Below are positions 14,261 to 63,195 of a DNA stretch of 64,000 nt, one piece after another. The stretch's first letter is position 1, and each line of letters starts with the position of its first letter. The stretch lies in sequence record PZ019085.1; one strand, written 5' to 3'. The notes under the pieces are model-generated. The model was given only the letters and a program-made list of their open reading frames with translations, did not search any database and had not been told where the DNA came from. This DNA is from a phage. A program made the position numbers and the translations under genes.

Positions 14261-14282
14261 GGAGCCTTCGGGCTCCTTTCGG
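14261..14282 (+). terminator. Intrinsic terminator (GGAGCC-UUCG-GGCUCC plus U-rich tail) after gene 41
   Basis: GC stem with UUCG tetraloop followed by TTTC. Confidence 0.6.
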
Positions 14283-14283
14283 G

Positions 14284-14313
14284 GTTTACATCTTCCTCTA
14301 GGCATGATATGAT
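14284..14313 (+). promoter_or_regulatory. Early sigma70-type promoter (GTTTAC, 18 bp, TATGAT)
   Basis: -35 GTTTAC at 14284-14289, -10 at 14308-14313; spacer TTCCTCT is complementary to the downstream SD AGAGGAA. Confidence 0.5.
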
Positions 14314-14342
14314 GTACTTACACCAACCAAGAGGAAAACACT

Positions 14343-14717
14343 ATGAATATGTCTCAAGCAATTTTTACTGCAATCACCGAAAACACAACTGTTGAAGTAG
14401 TTTCTCCGCTGGCAACCTACGTTATTCTTGCTCCTAAAACTATTGTATCTCGTATGGAAAACACGGGCAAACGTATTGTACAAATTGTTGGAGCTGGAAA
14501 TCAAAAACTTGATTATCTGCGAACTATCAAAGCTTACGAACATTTCCAAATCGAAAAAGGTTCTCCTATCCAGGTAGAACTCGTAAATGGTGATATCGTT
14601 CGAGCAATGTTCCATCATTTCTATGCATTGAATGACCAATCTAAAGCGGTTCGTTTAATTGCATACGACGCAAACCAAAACGAAATCAACGCAGACGTAT
14701 CTAAATTACGTTTTTAA
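14343..14717 (+). CDS. Hypothetical protein (124 aa)
   Basis: ORF with upstream SD AGAGGAA and its own promoter. Confidence 0.6.
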   Translation: MNMSQAIFTAITENTTVEVVSPLATYVILAPKTIVSRMENTGKRIVQIVGAGNQKLDYLRTIKAYEHFQIEKGSPIQVELVNGDIVRAMFHHFYALNDQSKAVRLIAYDANQNEINADVSKLRF

Positions 14718-14768
14718 GTTTACTTCTCCAGTAGTTGTGTTATTATAGACCTATCAACTACTGGAGAA
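14718..14768 (+). promoter_or_regulatory. Early promoter (GTTTAC, 17 bp, TATTAT) embedded in a 14-bp perfect inverted repeat that includes the SD
   Basis: Left arm TTCTCCAGTAGTTG 14724-14737, right arm CAACTACTGGAGAA 14755-14768; the -10 lies in the loop. Confidence 0.6.
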
Positions 14769-14772
14769 CAAA

Positions 14773-15090
14773 ATGAAAACCATCGATTGTAAAGCAGAAT
14801 TTAAGATTTTTTATCACGGTTCAAGTAGTTCAGCTAACATCGAAAACATGCTTTGTCCTCCTGAAGAAACAGGAGTTCTGTCTGAAACAGGACGTAAGAA
14901 AAACTTGGATCGTGTATTCTTTACTGAAGATATCGGTTTAGCAAAGATTTATGCAGGACGAGCAGCACGCTCTTATGGAGGTGAACCACGTCTCTATCGA
15001 GTAATTTCTCCGGTAGATGTAGTTCAAATGAATGATACTAAAGGCGCTACAGTTTATCACGCTGAATGGGCATTTTGCGAGGAAATATGA
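14773..15090 (+). CDS. Hypothetical protein (105 aa)
   Basis: ORF after the promoter/stem-loop cassette. Confidence 0.6.
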   Translation: MKTIDCKAEFKIFYHGSSSSANIENMLCPPEETGVLSETGRKKNLDRVFFTEDIGLAKIYAGRAARSYGGEPRLYRVISPVDVVQMNDTKGATVYHAEWAFCEEI

Positions 15091-16027: not shown

Positions 16028-16057
16028 GTTTACATTATAGATGGACTATAGTATAGT
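16028..16057 (+). promoter_or_regulatory. Early promoter (GTTTAC ... TATAGT) with GGACTA/TAGTCC palindrome
   Basis: -35 at 16028-16033, -10 at 16052-16057. Confidence 0.5.
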
Positions 16058-16086
16058 AGTCCTATCAAATCAACTAAGGAGTTAAA

Positions 16087-19759: not shown

Positions 19760-19973
19760 TTTTTATGCATGGCAAAAAGCCGGGAGACCGGCTAATAAAG
19801 CATTCGGCTCTGATGGATATAATACTAGACTCCACTGGAAATTTAATACTCAAGATGATTATTCTCCGGTAATCATTAATGGTGATGTTGTTATATTAGC
19901 TAAATTCGGATATTTTATTGTCCCGAAGAAATTCATTATAAATACACCTGTAATTAAACAACAAAGGAGTTAA
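19749..19973 (+). CDS. Hypothetical protein (74 aa)
   Basis: Internal ATG of the 19635..19973 track ORF, overlapping the upstream stop. Confidence 0.4.
   Translation: MKLDFYAWQKAGRPANKAFGSDGYNTRLHWKFNTQDDYSPVIINGDVVILAKFGYFIVPKKFIINTPVIKQQRS
19937..19944 (+). promoter_or_regulatory. Late promoter TATAAATA upstream of soc
   Basis: Exact T4 late -10 consensus about 30 nt upstream of the soc ATG. Confidence 0.6.
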
Positions 19974-19975
19974 TT

Positions 19976-20212
19976 ATGGGTGGTTATGTAAACATCAAAA
20001 CCTTTACGCATCCTGCTGGTGAAGGTAAAGAAGTTAAAGGTATGGAAGTTTCTGTACCGTTTGAGATTTATTCAAACGAACATCGGATTGCAGATTCTCA
20101 TTACCAAATCTTTCCATCAGAAAAGGCAGCTTATTCTGATGTCGTTTCTGATGCAGCAACTTGGAAAACTAAGAACGCAGCAATGTTTACCCCTACACCA
20201 GTAAGTGGTTAA
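19976..20212 (+). CDS. soc: Small outer capsid protein Soc
   Basis: YVNIKTF...HYQIFPSEKAAYS matches T4 Soc from memory; late promoter and terminator flank it. Confidence 0.8.
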   Translation: MGGYVNIKTFTHPAGEGKEVKGMEVSVPFEIYSNEHRIADSHYQIFPSEKAAYSDVVSDAATWKTKNAAMFTPTPVSG

Positions 20213-20220
20213 ATAATTTA

Positions 20221-20247
20221 AGGAATCCTTCGGGATTCCTTTTTTTG
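20221..20247 (+). terminator. Intrinsic terminator (AGGAAUCC-UUCG-GGAUUCCU plus U7)
   Basis: Perfect 8-bp stem, UUCG loop, TTTTTTT. Confidence 0.8.
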
Positions 20248-21576: not shown

Positions 21577-21737
21577 AAGAAAAATTTAAAGAGAAATTCT
21601 TACTAGAAATCAAGGAAAAAGACTTTGAGACATGGTACCGAATGGTGAAAGGGTTGACATTGCTTTTTAAAGCGTCCTTATTCATGTTAGAACAACCTGG
21701 TCCTGATGGACCTTTAGTAGGAAAGCTTAAAAAGTAG
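21573..21737 (+). CDS. Hypothetical protein (54 aa)
   Basis: ATGA overlap; below the track cutoff. Confidence 0.35.
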   Translation: MKEKFKEKFLLEIKEKDFETWYRMVKGLTLLFKASLFMLEQPGPDGPLVGKLKK

Positions 21738-21764
21738 TTTACATTCCCTCCTCTCGTGTTATGA
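21736..21764 (+). promoter_or_regulatory. Early promoter (GTTTAC, 17 bp, TATGAT)
   Basis: -35 at 21736-21741, -10 at 21759-21764; downstream inverted repeat GATAGAC/GTCTATC spans the SD. Confidence 0.5.
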
Positions 21765-21792
21765 TAGACTTATCTTTAAATGGAGGTCTATC

Positions 21793-22374
21793 ATGACATG
21801 TCAATCTGAACTTCAAGAACGCGAATACCTAACAAATCTGATTGATAGCAAATTCACCCGCCAAGAACAAAACATTCTCTGGGCTTGCACTGATTCTAAG
21901 GAAGACCCGGATTTCCACTATGAATTAGACCATCTTGTTCGTAAGCATATGACTTCTACAGTACCAGTAGAACTCTACCGTGGTGTAACTCCAGAAGAAA
22001 TAGAACGTCTTTCACTTCTTTCTGTTGGATGCCATTGGTCTCCTGGACGAGTAACATCGTTCACAACTGATTTCAACACAGCTCGTCAATTCTCTGGGAG
22101 TTGGGAATATCAGACGTACACTATTCTTAGTCTCAGGAATGCTCCATTCATTTTTGATTACTACCAAAACATGGTTAACATTGTACTCGCCGGAAAGAAC
22201 CCTAAGCATGTTATGGAAGAAACGCGTGTTGACGTCCTAGATATGATTGAATCTGAACAAGAGTACATGGTCTCAGGTATCTCTAGATTTGAGATTGTGG
22301 AAATTGAAGAGTTAGAGTATGACCCTTTGTCTCGAGTATACAAAATCATTCACTTAAAGATGTTGAATTTTTAG
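21793..22374 (+). CDS. ADP-ribosyltransferase, ModA/ModB family (first paralog)
   Basis: 193 aa; R-S-E-type motifs ELYRG, SFT and EQE; paralogous to the next gene; at the T4 modA/modB position. Confidence 0.6.
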   Translation: MTCQSELQEREYLTNLIDSKFTRQEQNILWACTDSKEDPDFHYELDHLVRKHMTSTVPVELYRGVTPEEIERLSLLSVGCHWSPGRVTSFTTDFNTARQFSGSWEYQTYTILSLRNAPFIFDYYQNMVNIVLAGKNPKHVMEETRVDVLDMIESEQEYMVSGISRFEIVEIEELEYDPLSRVYKIIHLKMLNF

Positions 22375-26256: not shown

Positions 26257-26286
26257 GTTTACAACCAAGGATGGTTGTGGTATAAT
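26257..26286 (+). promoter_or_regulatory. Early promoter (GTTTAC, 18 bp, TATAAT) with spacer hairpin ACAACCA-AGGA-TGGTTGT
   Basis: Consensus -35 and -10; near-duplicate of the promoter at 26815. Confidence 0.6.
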
Positions 26287-26317: not shown

Positions 26318-26812
26318 ATGAATATCAATACTACGGCTACTTACATCCTGAAAGACGAAAAACAAATCAACTGGTACGGTGCTTCAGTGCGAGCTTATGA
26401 AAAGTTTTGTGAAATTTTAGGTGCCACTCAAGGTAATAGTTTCACTATTGTTAACTTCATCAAACAAGCTGAAGGTCCTTGGTTATTCTTAGAAATTAAA
26501 AATTCATACGGTACAATTTCTACTACCGCCCTTCCAAGCACCGACTTTGAACTGTTGATTGAAGAAGCACCTGTTAAAGATGGTCTCCACTTTGATATGG
26601 ACATCGCTTGTATGTACGGTACTCTGATTAAGCCTATTGAGCCTACTGATTTGTTGTGTAAAGCCGTTTCAATTCGACGTCCGTTCGCAGGTCCAGTGAG
26701 TGGATGGGTAACTGACCAGTGGATTGAAGATGGTGTTGAACTTCTGAACGTAGTTCATGCAGGTGATTTTAGTGTAGTTCCTCGTAGTGCTGTGGTTAAT
26801 ATTCTTAATTAA
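26318..26812 (+). CDS. Hypothetical protein, paralog 1 of a tandem triplet
   Basis: C-terminus GWVTDQWIEDGVELLNVVHAGDFSVVP is shared with the next two genes. Confidence 0.65.
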   Translation: MNINTTATYILKDEKQINWYGASVRAYEKFCEILGATQGNSFTIVNFIKQAEGPWLFLEIKNSYGTISTTALPSTDFELLIEEAPVKDGLHFDMDIACMYGTLIKPIEPTDLLCKAVSIRRPFAGPVSGWVTDQWIEDGVELLNVVHAGDFSVVPRSAVVNILN

Positions 26813-26814
26813 TG

Positions 26815-26844
26815 TTTTACATCCAAGGATGGATGGAGTATAAT
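26815..26844 (+). promoter_or_regulatory. Early promoter (TTTTAC, 18 bp, TATAAT), duplicate of the 26257 promoter
   Basis: Shares the CCAAGGATGG spacer core with the promoter at 26257. Confidence 0.5.
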
Positions 26845-26874
26845 GAATTCAACTTAAACAAAGAGAGAAAAAAT

Positions 26875-27330
26875 ATGATTAATATTGGTGAAATTAAACG
26901 TGTATCAACAGTGTCTCGTTCTAAAGCTGCAGGAAAGCTGGTTGAAGTAGTAGGACTTCGTACTAATGGCATGGGTCGTATTAAAGAAGTTAAAGTTCGA
27001 ATCATCCCCAGTTTTGGCGGACAAGATGCCCAGTATGCTTACGTAAGTCCTAAATTCCTGGAAACTCATGTGAGTGCTCATTTTGCTTCTACTGAACCTA
27101 ATGTACAGTTCAAATGGACCTTGTGTAAAGGTGTTGAATTCCAGACTGATAAAGAATTTGACTTCATCGATGAATACGGTTATCCAAGCAAAACTGATAT
27201 TATGTGTGGCTTCATTAGTGACCAATGGGTTGAAGATGGTGAAAAGTTATACAATATCGTATTCTTAGGTGACTTCCGAGTTGTTAAAGAATCTGAAATC
27301 ACTCGCTATGTGTCTCCTCGTAAAGCTTAA
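26875..27330 (+). CDS. Hypothetical protein, paralog 2 of the tandem triplet
   Basis: GFISDQWVEDGEKLYNIVFLGDFRVV; start trimmed to the ATG after the SD (the track ORF includes the promoter). Confidence 0.6.
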   Translation: MINIGEIKRVSTVSRSKAAGKLVEVVGLRTNGMGRIKEVKVRIIPSFGGQDAQYAYVSPKFLETHVSAHFASTEPNVQFKWTLCKGVEFQTDKEFDFIDEYGYPSKTDIMCGFISDQWVEDGEKLYNIVFLGDFRVVKESEITRYVSPRKA

Positions 27331-27339
27331 GGAATTATT

Positions 27340-27759
27340 ATGAATATTGCAAATCTCTCTATTGGTGATTATGTACACGTATCAGATGCTTCTCGCTCTA
27401 AAGTTGCTGGTAAGTTGGTCGAAGTTCTTTCTGTGAGTGATCCGGTTTTTGGACGTAACGAAGTTAAAGTTCGTGACGCTGATGGTAACATTGGTTACGT
27501 TAAAAGCCAATTCATCGAGCCAGAAGAACGCGCGTTCAAATGGAAACTGTGCAGATCGGTTTTAGTTGTAAAAGACCACGAGTTCACCATTGCTGCGGCA
27601 ACAGATGGAACACCGTGGACAACGAATCAAGTTGCTGGTTTTATTTCGGACCAATGGGTAGAAGATGGTGTTAAGCTTTATAACATCGTTTTCGCTGGAC
27701 AGTTCATAGTAGTTCCTGAGTTCCAAATCAAAAAATATTGTCCAGCATCTTTTGCATAA
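27340..27759 (+). CDS. Hypothetical protein, paralog 3 of the tandem triplet
   Basis: GFISDQWVEDGVKLYNIVFAGQFIVVP; N-terminal SRSKVAGKLVEV shared with paralog 2. Confidence 0.65.
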   Translation: MNIANLSIGDYVHVSDASRSKVAGKLVEVLSVSDPVFGRNEVKVRDADGNIGYVKSQFIEPEERAFKWKLCRSVLVVKDHEFTIAAATDGTPWTTNQVAGFISDQWVEDGVKLYNIVFAGQFIVVPEFQIKKYCPASFA

Positions 27760-27763
27760 AGTT

Positions 27764-27815
27764 GTTTACTTCTCCTCTGGTTTTGATATTATACCCATAT
27801 CAACCAGAGGAGAAT
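27764..27815 (+). promoter_or_regulatory. Early promoter (GTTTAC, 17 bp, TATTAT) inside an 11-bp perfect inverted repeat that includes the SD
   Basis: Left arm TTCTCCTCTGG 27770-27780, right arm CCAGAGGAGAA 27805-27815. Confidence 0.6.
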
Positions 27816-27818
27816 AAT

Positions 27819-28343
27819 ATGTTAGTTTACCGCGTAGAACGTAGTTTTTGTACTCAACGTGAATCATTACCAGGAATTGCTATTGAAGACGGTAAAGCCG
27901 TCAGAATTTGGGAAACCTCTTGGAATAAAGAACCTCGCTCGCCGTACGGTTGGTCGGGCACCGACAACTCTGAAGAAACATGGGAGTTCCTTGATAAGCA
28001 TGGAATACTCTCAGGTAACTTCTACCATCATGGCGACAACTATAATGTCCCTAATCGTCCTACAGTAAATGAAGACAAACTCCTTGAACAAAATATCTTA
28101 AGATACTATAGAATTGAGCACACATTTGAATTGAGTGAAGATTGGGCTCAATGGTTCTATTTTGGATTTGAAAGTGTTGACGCGGTTTATGCATGGTTTG
28201 ATGACCAGGTGGATGTTGAACTCTTGAAAGCTAAAGGATACTACATCGCTGTCTATGAAGCACCTGATTTCATCCTCGGAAGTTGTCAATTAATGTTTAG
28301 ACGTTCATTGGCAGAACAAGTTGATTTTATTTTGCTAAAATGA
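27819..28343 (+). CDS. Hypothetical protein (174 aa)
   Basis: ATG after SD GAGGAGAA; the track ORF start lies inside the promoter. Confidence 0.6.
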   Translation: MLVYRVERSFCTQRESLPGIAIEDGKAVRIWETSWNKEPRSPYGWSGTDNSEETWEFLDKHGILSGNFYHHGDNYNVPNRPTVNEDKLLEQNILRYYRIEHTFELSEDWAQWFYFGFESVDAVYAWFDDQVDVELLKAKGYYIAVYEAPDFILGSCQLMFRRSLAEQVDFILLK

Positions 28344-32709: not shown

Positions 32710-32760
32710 GGCACTATTACACATAAGATGATAAATTATACGGTCTTTAGTAATAGTGCC
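32710..32760 (+). repeat. 11-bp perfect inverted repeat GGCACTATTAC ... GTAATAGTGCC with a 29-nt AT-rich loop
   Basis: Seen directly between the glycosyltransferase gene and the rIIA.1-position ORF. Confidence 0.6.
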
Positions 32761-32785: not shown

Positions 32786-32986
32786 ATGAGAACGTATAAC
32801 GTGGACTTGGAACTTTTTGATAAAGCGGTGCTCCGAGAATTCCGGCTTATCCAAAGATTTTTTGATATCGAATCAGCTGAAGCCTTTAAAGAACGCTTTA
32901 AGGAAATTCGATATAAAATACAAACCGATACAGCTACTAAAGAAGAACTTCTTGAAGTAGCAGAAATTTTTAAACGTAACTTGTGA
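32786..32986 (+). CDS. Hypothetical protein (66 aa), rIIA.1 position
   Basis: ORF upstream of rIIA. Confidence 0.5.
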   Translation: MRTYNVDLELFDKAVLREFRLIQRFFDIESAEAFKERFKEIRYKIQTDTATKEELLEVAEIFKRNL

Positions 32987-37004: not shown

Positions 37005-37034
37005 GTTTACAACTAAGTAGGACTATGTTATAGT
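37005..37034 (+). promoter_or_regulatory. Early promoter (GTTTAC ... TATAGT) with AGGACTA/TAGTCCT palindrome
   Basis: -35 at 37005-37010, -10 at 37029-37034. Confidence 0.5.
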
Positions 37035-37060
37035 AGTCCTATCTAAAAGAGGATAACATT

Positions 37061-37516: not shown

Positions 37517-37546
37517 GTTTACAACAAGGTAGGATTATGGTATAGT
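37517..37546 (+). promoter_or_regulatory. Early promoter (GTTTAC, 18 bp, TATAGT)
   Basis: Near-duplicate of the promoters at 16028, 37005 and 57137. Confidence 0.5.
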
Positions 37547-37574
37547 AGTCCTATCAAAACACGAGGAACACAAA

Positions 37575-56361: not shown

Positions 56362-56383
56362 GGGAGACTTCGGTCTCCCTTTT
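56362..56383 (+). terminator. Intrinsic terminator (GGGAGAC-UUCG-GUCUCCC plus U4)
   Basis: Perfect stem and UUCG loop after gene 32. Confidence 0.75.
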
Positions 56384-56411: not shown

Positions 56412-56450
56412 GTTTACTTTTCCTTTAAACATGATACTATAGACTTATCA
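56412..56450 (+). promoter_or_regulatory. Early promoter (GTTTAC, 17 bp, TACTAT); spacer TTTTCCT is complementary to the SD AGGAAAA
   Basis: -35 at 56412-56417, -10 at 56435-56440. Confidence 0.5.
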
Positions 56451-56470
56451 ACAAATTAGAGGAAAATAAA

Positions 56471-56722
56471 ATGATTTTTATTATTCAAAGAAGTATGGAT
56501 TACTGCGGTAGCAAAAACGTTGCAGCTTTCACTGACCCAGTTGCGACATACAATGAATGCCTGAAGCCGGAAAACGTAGCATGTATTTCGTCTGATTACG
56601 AAGCTCTTATCGTACAGATGTTCTATTCTTCGGGTGATAATCATGCAGTTCGCATTAAAGAAGAACACCTAGAATCATATGAGACGTTTGCAGAATCTTT
56701 ATTACAACACATCAACAAATGA
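56471..56722 (+). CDS. Hypothetical protein (83 aa)
   Basis: ORF with SD AGAGGAAAA. Confidence 0.55.
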   Translation: MIFIIQRSMDYCGSKNVAAFTDPVATYNECLKPENVACISSDYEALIVQMFYSSGDNHAVRIKEEHLESYETFAESLLQHINK

Positions 56723-57137: not shown

Positions 57138-57166
57138 TTTACAACAAGATAGGGCTATGTTATAGT
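57137..57166 (+). promoter_or_regulatory. Early promoter (GTTTAC, 18 bp, TATAGT)
   Basis: Same promoter family as 16028, 37005 and 37517. Confidence 0.5.
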
Positions 57167-57200
57167 AGTCCTATCAAATAAAAGTGAAGAGGAGAATAAA

Positions 57201-63166: not shown

Positions 63167-63195
63167 TTTACACACCACAAGGATTGTGGTACAAT
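63166..63195 (+). promoter_or_regulatory. Early promoter (GTTTAC, 18 bp, TACAAT) with spacer hairpin CCACAA-GGA-TTGTGG
   Basis: -35 at 63166-63171, -10 at 63190-63195. Confidence 0.55.

Follow-up and report, generated by a model that had tools for sequence, protein, structure and literature searches.

We analyzed a window of 64,000 nucleotides (nt) of phage DNA (sequence record PZ019085.1), in which several early promoters of the T4 type are embedded in inverted repeats that reach into the ribosome-binding site (RBS) of the gene downstream. The longest perfect repeat is located at the promoter at 14718, in front of the gene that starts at 14773, and two further strong cases were identified at 27764 and 21737. 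Based on RNA folding, on pairing statistics from T4 and other phages, and on comparison with known systems, we consider it probable that these cassettes block translation of RNA that reads through from upstream, and that the gene would then be translated only from its own early promoter.

Inverted repeats at early promoters

At the first site, which like all sites described here is on the + strand, the -35 element GTTTAC (14718–14723) of a T4-type early promoter adjoins the stop codon TAA (14715–14717) of the upstream, RB69ORF041c-like open reading frame (ORF) 14343–14717. The promoter spacer is formed by the left arm TTCTCCAGTAGTTG (14724–14737), an anti-Shine-Dalgarno (anti-SD) sequence that is present only in RNA begun upstream. 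It is the perfect 14-base-pair (bp) reverse complement of the right arm CAACTACTGGAGAA (14755–14768), which includes the SD sequence GGAG (14763–14766) 6 nt before the ATG at 14773. The -10 element TATTAT (14741–14746), with TGT before it, is located inside the 17-nt hairpin loop, and the start site (+1) predicted from the spacing is an A at 14753. The sequence GGAGAACAAAA fits the consensus of RegB/S1 targets, GGAGRAYARAA, exactly. The putatively gated gene (14773–15090) encodes an RB69ORF040c-like protein of 105 amino acids (phrog_2110) with no assigned function. The terminator scan called no site between ORF 14343–14717 and the promoter. A preliminary description of this DNA had placed the 14-bp repeat, with the SD in its right arm, at exactly these coordinates.

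The second strong site precedes motB.2 (27819–28343, 174 amino acids). The -35 element GTTTAC (27764–27769) follows a motB-like gene that ends at 27759, and the left arm TTCTCCTCTGGTT (27770–27782) forms a perfect 13-bp repeat with the right arm AACCAGAGGAGAA (27802–27814), which contains the SD GGAG (27809–27812). The repeat had previously been listed at 27770/27805 with a length of 11 bp; its presence is thus confirmed and its length corrected. Again, the -10 element TATTAT (27787–27792) is located in the loop, and the +1 predicted from the spacing is an A (27799). The distance from the end of the upstream ORF to the -35 element is 0–4 nt at both 14718 and 27764, and the terminator scan called no terminator-like site between the upstream gene and the 27764 promoter.

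The third strong site, which was absent from the preliminary description, is of a different type and precedes a gene for a ModB-like RNA polymerase ADP-ribosyltransferase (21793–22374, 193 amino acids). The -35 element GTTTAC is found at 21737–21742. The left arm TGTTATGATAGACTT (21757–21771) overlaps the -10 element (21760–21765) and ends one nucleotide before the predicted +1 (21772), and the right arm AGGTCTATCATGACA (21784–21798) covers the end of the SD GGAGG (21782–21786) together with the ATG at 21793. The helix comprises 15 bp including two G.U pairs; the -10 region is paired and the ATG is buried. The modB gene of T4 has the same arrangement (ATGATAGCTTCT / GGAGGCTATCAT), and the arms of the T4 and window versions differ by an inserted, compensatory base pair.

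A moderate case was observed at the promoter with its -35 element at 56412–56417. The left arm TTTTCCTTTAA (56418–56428) and the right arm TTAGAGGAAAA (56456–56466), which holds the SD, are followed by the ATG at 56471. The arms can be read either as 7 bp of perfect pairing (56418–56424 / 56460–56466) or as 11 bp with one G.U pair (56418–56428 / 56456–56466). The 7-bp repeat reported earlier at 56420/56447 is therefore present, but position 56447 belongs to neither arm and coincides with the predicted start site. Similarly, a 7-bp repeat reported at 14292/14330 was recovered at the promoter at 14284, where the left arm TTCCTCT (14293–14299) pairs with the right arm AGAGGAA (14330–14336), 5' of the ATG at 14343, but the predicted effect at this site is negligible (1.2 kcal/mol). 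The general geometry, with the left arm 5' of the predicted +1 and the SD under the right arm, was as proposed. Thus, the observation of the repeats is confirmed, with corrections to the coordinates.

Predicted accessibility of the ribosome-binding site

Using the pattern GTTTAC, or one mismatch to it, followed by N17–18 and TAnnnT, we identified 20 T4-type early promoters directly 5' of + strand genes in the window. In this orientation the + strand carries the early genes, and the record of a related phage labels the same type of motif, at another place, as a T4 early promoter. The base seven nt after the -10 element is an A in 18 of the 20 promoters, mostly within the motif ctAtc, and +1 was placed at this position from the spacing. 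We then calculated the opening cost, defined as the free energy required to open the region from SD to AUG (-13 to +3), for the read-through RNA and for the RNA that begins at the predicted +1.

The opening cost of the read-through RNA was 18.9, 19.0 and 15.9 kcal/mol at 14718, 27764 and 21737, respectively, as compared to 3.6, 3.1 and 4.4 kcal/mol for the local RNA. The folding check proposed in the preliminary description thus gave the expected result, with a decrease from approximately 19 to 3 kcal/mol at 14718 and 27764. Ranked by the difference between the two RNAs, the sites are 27764 (15.9 kcal/mol), 14718 (15.2), 21737 (11.5), 56412 (6.2) and 37005 (4.6), and the remaining early promoters, including the one at 14284, showed differences of less than 3 kcal/mol. 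Hence, three of the 20 early promoters are strong cases and one is moderate, and the earlier statement that many small early genes are affected is too strong for this window.

The folds were also compared with shuffled sequences in ViennaRNA. The read-through RNAs had z-scores of -4.6 (14718), -5.8 (27764) and -4.2 (21737), with none of 200 shuffled sequences being as stable, and the RNAs from the local starts at these sites had positive z-scores and were unstructured. At 56412 the z-score was -3.3 for the read-through RNA and -1.2 for the local RNA. As a further control, the same truncation was applied to 45 promoter-less + strand gene starts, which yielded a mean difference of 1.3 kcal/mol and a maximum of 7.9 kcal/mol; no control reached 10 kcal/mol. 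The highest control value belongs to the homologue of soc, a textbook case in T4, which indicates that the folding method recovers a known example.

The soc homologue is gene 19976–20212, and its protein is 57% identical to T4 Soc. Its late promoter TATAAATA (19937–19944) adjoins a 13-bp hairpin (19945–19957 / 19970–19982) in which the ATG is buried, as in the classical soc arrangement of T4.

Long repeats are rare in the window. Perfect inverted repeats of at least 10 bp with a loop of 3–40 nt were found at only five places in the 64 kb, and the two longest are the 14-bp repeat at 14718 and the 13-bp repeat at 27764. First-order Markov simulations predicted 0.07 repeats of at least 13 bp per window, as compared to the two observed. 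Pairing of at least 7 bp was seen also in 24 of the 380 (6%) non-cognate combinations of promoter and leader from the window, and the 7-bp repeats are for this reason not significant individually. A search against Rfam gave no family match across the whole window.

Selection for pairing in T4 and related phages

Early-promoter cassettes were extracted from the T4 genome (NC_000866) in the same manner as from the window, giving 51 cassettes in total. With RNAduplex, the segment from the -35 element to the end of the -10 element was paired with the segment from ATG-18 to ATG+6, in cognate and in non-cognate combinations. Duplexes of -16 kcal/mol or lower were formed by seven cognate pairs, as compared to 0.44 expected (permutation p = 5e-5), and duplexes of -12 kcal/mol or lower by 12 cognate pairs, as compared to 2.9 expected. 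An extended set of 149 non-redundant cassettes, obtained from a pattern scan of IMG/VR together with the earlier loci, contained 21 cognate pairs at -16 kcal/mol or lower (1.4 expected) and 10 at -20 kcal/mol or lower (0.07 expected). Because the scan pattern demanded a CTCC/GGAGAA core, the test was repeated on the 115 cassettes that did not match the pattern, and five of these reached -16 kcal/mol, as compared to 0.32 expected (p ~0.001).

The pairing also extends beyond the core. In the 37 cassettes with a CTCC/GGAG core, a mean of 3.3 bp was added to it, as compared to 0.74 bp in non-cognate pairs, and extensions of at least 5 bp were found in 15 cassettes but in only 2.3% of the non-cognate pairs. 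No two extensions are alike (AGTAGTTG/CAACTACT, ATTTGGTT/AACCAAAT, TCTTTTCT/AGAAAAGA, TGTAGATG/CATCTACA and others), with several types of base pair per position, which is the pattern of covariation. No excess of cognate pairing was detected in the coding region from ATG+6 to +30. At least 3 nt of the SD were paired in all 27 strong helices of the 149-cassette set. Finally, the helix search scored the two transition mismatches G.T and A.C alike, yet the internal mismatches of the 15 best helices comprised 14 of the G.U type and two of the A.C type. Such an excess of G.U is expected for an RNA helix in the sense strand, whereas a palindrome in DNA gives no reason for the asymmetry. Together, the sequence comparisons indicate that the pairing is selected, that it acts in the sense-strand RNA and that it is specific to the ribosome-binding region.

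In T4, the arrangement was found at the promoters of regB (15 bp, two G.U pairs), denV (10 bp), nrdC.8, alc, alt.-3, motB.2, modB and 30.8, and at one promoter in the ndd region.

These results bear on the suggestion that the repeats act at the level of DNA, as cruciforms, as recombination sites for the shuffling of cassettes, or as operators at which a dimeric protein would silence early promoters. Such a role would suit the published promoter-early stem-loop (PeSL) cassettes, which recombine, as does the cassette of phage TH58 described below, and the shut-off of early promoters in T4 still lacks an explanation (PMC2988021). However, the 14:2 ratio of G.U to A.C within the helices is sensible only for sense-strand RNA, the loops range from 16 to 35 nt in length, and the arm sequences vary between promoters, so that no single protein could read them. 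We rejected an operator or cruciform on account of the asymmetry and the arm diversity, and consider a DNA-level role exceedingly unlikely.

Another possibility is that the hairpins terminate or attenuate transcription arriving from upstream before it enters the next cassette, as in the published interpretation of PeSLs. The cassettes are PeSL-like in composition, and one PeSL stem-loop of RB49 lowers the expression of a downstream lacZ as strongly as a strong terminator (Arbiol 2010). The hairpins of the window, however, are not followed by a U-tract (CAAAATGAAAACC at 14769; TAATATGTTAG at 27815), none of them was called by the terminator scan, and their loops of 16–35 nt hold the -10 element. 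Termination would not need pairing with the SD, yet the SD is paired in every strong helix and the partner is specific to the RBS. Moreover, the phage has separate, classical terminators with a UUCG loop, for example at 14261–14276. A function of the helices in termination is thus very unlikely.

UUCG-tetraloop intrinsic terminators are located directly 5' of early promoters at 14261–14276, 20220–20241 and 56362–56379. The GGAG within the stems at 14261–14276 and 56362–56379 corresponds to the class of structured, RegB-resistant sites (PMC1702504).

We also considered the helix as a substitute for a missing upstream terminator, an idea based on the strong sites 14718 and 27764, which lack an upstream terminator, and the weak sites 14284 and 56412, which have one. 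This candidate was rejected, as no association was found among the 51 cassettes (11/3 versus 29/8, Fisher p = 1).

Conservation and mobility of the cassettes

The 2-kb stretch around the 14718 site is matched at 97–98% identity by many genomes of Mosigvirus, which are RB69-like T-even phages, and we assign the window to this group. The best match is phage SA79RD, with the local gene order uvsX, 40, 41, RB69ORF041c, RB69ORF040c, dmd, imm, sp ... 61. The nearest paralogue of the 14718 cassette is the promoter of denV in T4, which differs by one compensatory change from T-A to A-T. More broadly, matches to the 111-nt cassette were found at 821 places in 266 phage records, among them the promoters of denV and regB, and related genomes contain 3–6 such places each.

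In three T4-like contigs from IMG/VR (L010, L014 and L015), the sequence CAACTACTGGAGAA is kept 5' of the ORF040c homologue, and GTTTAC and the left arm are absent; the upstream region contains a GC-rich terminator hairpin and only a -10-like TATAAT.

Sequestration is conserved at motB.2, where the promoter sequesters the RBS in five lineages, that is, in all that were retrieved. The arms are TTCTCCTCTGGTT / AACCAGAGGAGAA in Mosigvirus, TTCTCCTCATG / CATGAGGAGAA in Dhakavirus (JS98) and TCCTCGGT-AGTTGTGGT / ACCATAGCT-ACTGAGGA in the T4-like phages, and in two lineages of greater distance it is the -10 region to which the SD and AUG are paired. Thus, the sequences and even the positions of the arms differ among lineages while the RBS stays sequestered.

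Phage TH58 (MT446423; L060 215–275 against window 27764–27821) has the same motB end, -35 element and TTCTCCTCT as the window, and both the -10 half of the cassette and the downstream gene differ from those at 27764. This points to TH58 being a recombinant, with the recombination within the cassette. TH58 retains 9 bp of pairing with the SD, because the core is generic.

Comparison with known systems

Sequestration of the RBS in long transcripts, with the promoter inside the hairpin, is known for e, soc, 49, I-TevI and segB of T4 and for mobE of Aeh1, and the mechanism has been shown experimentally for gene e and I-TevI (PMC3014915, PMC2988022). As in T4 e, soc, 49 and I-TevI, the 5' arm of the helices described here is upstream of the predicted promoter-proximal start, and the SD and/or AUG are located in the 3' arm. 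The right arms at 14755–14768, 27802–27814 and 21784–21798 contain GGAG or AUG, as the promoter-in-hairpin type requires, and the +1 positions predicted from the consensus spacing (14753, 27799 and 21772) are all 3' of the left arms. The long transcripts of the T4 genes are translationally silent. For the present sites, the predicted opening energies are 15–19 kcal/mol in long RNA versus 3–4 kcal/mol in short RNA.

There are two differences. The embedded promoter of the T4 e/soc/49/I-TevI class is a late promoter, or a middle promoter in a few endonuclease genes, and all genes so regulated were late genes according to a 2010 review on mobile elements (PMC2988022). Here, it is a sigma-70 early promoter (GTTTAC-N17-TAnnnT), so that the predicted time window is reversed to immediate-early only and the cassettes are not plain members of that class. 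Unlike in the e/soc type, the spacer of the promoter serves at the same time as the anti-SD strand. In the literature that we found, RBS sequestration by an embedded early promoter is undescribed, and an older mention for individual early genes is possible.

The PeSL cassettes of RB49/phi1, PST/T4 and nt-1/KVP40 have been interpreted as carrying terminators or attenuators and recombination sites in their stem-loops (Arbiol 2010; Comeau 2014). According to the preliminary description, the cassettes of the window match this class. The composite of stop codon, AT-rich tract, strong early promoter with -35 and -10 elements, SD and ATG is indeed PeSL-like, as are its conservation, its repetition around the genome and its involvement in gene shuffling in hyperplastic regions. 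The stem-loop itself differs. Published PeSL stem-loops are compact and are found either wholly 5' of the start site, in five positional classes, or 5' of the promoter; their positions include the spacer, the -35 or -10 element, the AT-rich tract and the stretch immediately 5' of +1. Masking of the SD has not been described for them, whereas here the right arm is within the transcribed leader and the loop is 16–35 nt long. Hairpins of the compact PeSL type are present at other promoters of the window (26257, 26815, 63166, 16028 and 37005). We conclude that the elements are best classed with promoter-in-hairpin RBS sequestration, as a form that uses an early promoter and resides in PeSL-like cassettes.

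The compact hairpins are of two kinds. At three early promoters (26261–26278, 26820–26835 and 63174–63190) a stem of 6–7 bp with an AGGA or GGA loop is located in the spacer between the -35 and -10 elements and leaves the SD untouched, which fits a published PeSL positional class. The hairpin reaches the -10 element at 63190, and at the remaining two promoters a gap of 2–3 nt separates it from the -10 element; T4 has spacer hairpins of the same kind at rIIA.1 and near ndd.6. In the other kind, an inverted repeat (TAGGACTA..TAGTCCTA) straddles the -10 element and the SD is unmasked (16043–16062 and 37018–37041, also 37530–37553 and 57148–57175). Repeats straddling the -10 element reach 14 bp at ipII in T4, and 10–13 bp at dmd, ipI and the promoter 5' of mobD.2 (Pe 57990).

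Proposed mechanism and alternatives

We propose that the stretch from the -35 element to the start site has two roles. On the DNA, it would act as a T4-type early (sigma-70) promoter. A polymerase arriving from an upstream promoter would transcribe the same stretch into an anti-SD strand, and the read-through RNA, carrying both arms, would fold and close the RBS. Since the -10 element and the start site are located in the loop, the local RNA would start 2–3 nt before the right arm, lack the left arm and leave the RBS open. Translation would consequently be restricted to the first minutes of infection, the period in which early promoters are active, and later read-through RNA from upstream early or middle promoters would contain the gene in a closed, untranslatable form. 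The start sites, the actual occurrence of read-through and the block of translation are parts of this scheme that we infer. Read-through is plausible at 14718 and 27764, where the stop codon adjoins the -35 element and no terminator-like site was found, and early transcripts of T4 are generally extended (PMC2988021). The scheme is in essence the gating proposed in the preliminary description, the interpretation of which is partly supported: the mechanism is plausible and the comparative evidence for it is strong, but the match to PeSLs is inaccurate, the extent in the window was overstated, and the translational effect is a prediction.

The proximity of the stop codon would also allow for translational coupling, in which a ribosome terminating on the upstream gene melts the base of the helix that holds the SD, and the downstream gene is translated only together with the upstream gene. 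At 14718, the left arm begins 7 nt after the stop codon, and its 5' end is the TTCTCC that pairs with the SD. Given the size of the ribosome footprint, a terminating ribosome could cover approximately four of the TTCTCC nucleotides at this site. Even so, the GG of the SD would remain paired. At 27764 the left arm begins 13 nt past the first base of the stop codon and is out of reach, and the distance from the stop codon to the left arm is approximately 20 nt or more at 21737 and at nrdC.8, alc and the ndd region of T4. Coupling is therefore an unlikely explanation.

The same ribosome-binding regions of T4 early mRNAs (GGAGAAYAAAA) are targets of RegB/S1, and the T4 regB cassette itself has the 15-bp helix. 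RegB is a trans-acting nuclease that acts on single-stranded sites, whereas the present element would work in cis, as an RNA structure determined by where the transcript originates; both would limit synthesis to a short early burst. As the RegB target must be single-stranded, the closed long RNA should resist RegB and would be neither cut nor translated. The RBS of the 14773 gene, being a perfect RegB/S1 target, implies on the other hand that open local RNAs should soon be inactivated.

The helix could accordingly be thought to function mainly in RNA processing or stability, as a RegB shield or as a protective hairpin at the 3' end of the upstream message, with translation being secondary. The RegB target is an 11-nt single-stranded GGAGRAYARAA, and structure prevents cleavage (PMC1702504, PMC3014915). 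The RBS at 14773 fits this consensus exactly and the one at 27819 nearly, and T4 regB and motB.2, which are both cut by RegB, have the helix. The modB-type helices, however, cover the AUG and not a RegB site, and their SD misfits the consensus. A message that is shielded from RegB but not translated would be silent, and no use for it is obvious. Besides, such protection is compatible with a block of read-through translation rather than an alternative to it, and as the main function of the helix we consider it highly improbable. Since the helices are only 13–15 bp long, a role as RNase III substrates is unlikely as well.

The full RegB/S1 consensus GGAGRAYARAA is present at 14763–14773 (gene 14773) and at 57187–57197 (gene 57201), and a partial consensus was found at the genes 20314, 27819 and 37061.

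Several points weigh against a translational block as the function of these cassettes. The 14-bp helix at 14718 is confined to the nearest relatives and is evolutionarily young. Dhakavirus-like and other orthologues of this promoter have only 5–6 bp of pairing (TTCTCC/GGAGAA, ATCTCC/GGAGAT and TCCTC/GAGGA), and some relatives carry the right arm without the left arm. With a young helix and short or armless orthologues, strong sequestration is not essential for the 14773 gene. Approximately three quarters of the early promoters have no helix, and the presence of the helix is unrelated to the absence of an upstream terminator, a relation that pure insulation against read-through might predict. 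Moreover, the start sites in the window and in the T4 counterparts were placed by spacing alone, and thermodynamic folding disregards ribosomes, S1 and co-transcriptional kinetics.

Other elements in the window

The third longest perfect repeat of the window, with 11 bp (GGCACTATTAC / GTAATAGTGCC) and a loop of 29 nt, is located at 32710–32760. It is intergenic, before a small ORF (32786–32986) and 5' of a gene of the size of rIIA; the SD is untouched and there is no U-tract.

The listed ORF 26812–27330 begins within a promoter (TTTTAC at 26815). Its true start is probably the ATG at 26875, which is preceded by an SD-like AGAGAGA.

Implications for T-even phages

For the timing of gene expression in phages, T4 serves as the reference system. 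According to the reviews, early protein synthesis ends rapidly through promoter shut-off and cleavage by RegB, and RBS-masking hairpins are listed for late genes only. Formed from the early promoter itself, a helix that is conserved and covaries would supply a cis rule for which transcripts of an early gene are translatable. With the -10 element in the loop, promoter and helix would be separately mutable.

How far this extends is more tentative. It is possible, at slightly less than an even chance, that about a fifth to a quarter of the T-even early cassettes are self-insulating modules in which the spacer doubles as the anti-RBS strand. If so, they would constitute a third, cis-encoded layer, beside promoter shut-off and RegB, that limits a set of genes to the first minutes of infection, and in T4 this set would include regB, alc, modB, motB.2 and denV. 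In that case, RNA pairing and not contact with RNA polymerase would account for part of the "extra consensus" of early promoters in T4. For annotation, abundant transcripts of such genes late in infection need not mean that protein is synthesized. The finding would also tie the idea of PeSLs as mobile cassettes to a function in expression, and would explain why new neighbors leave expression unchanged when a cassette is moved from one genomic context to another by shuffling.

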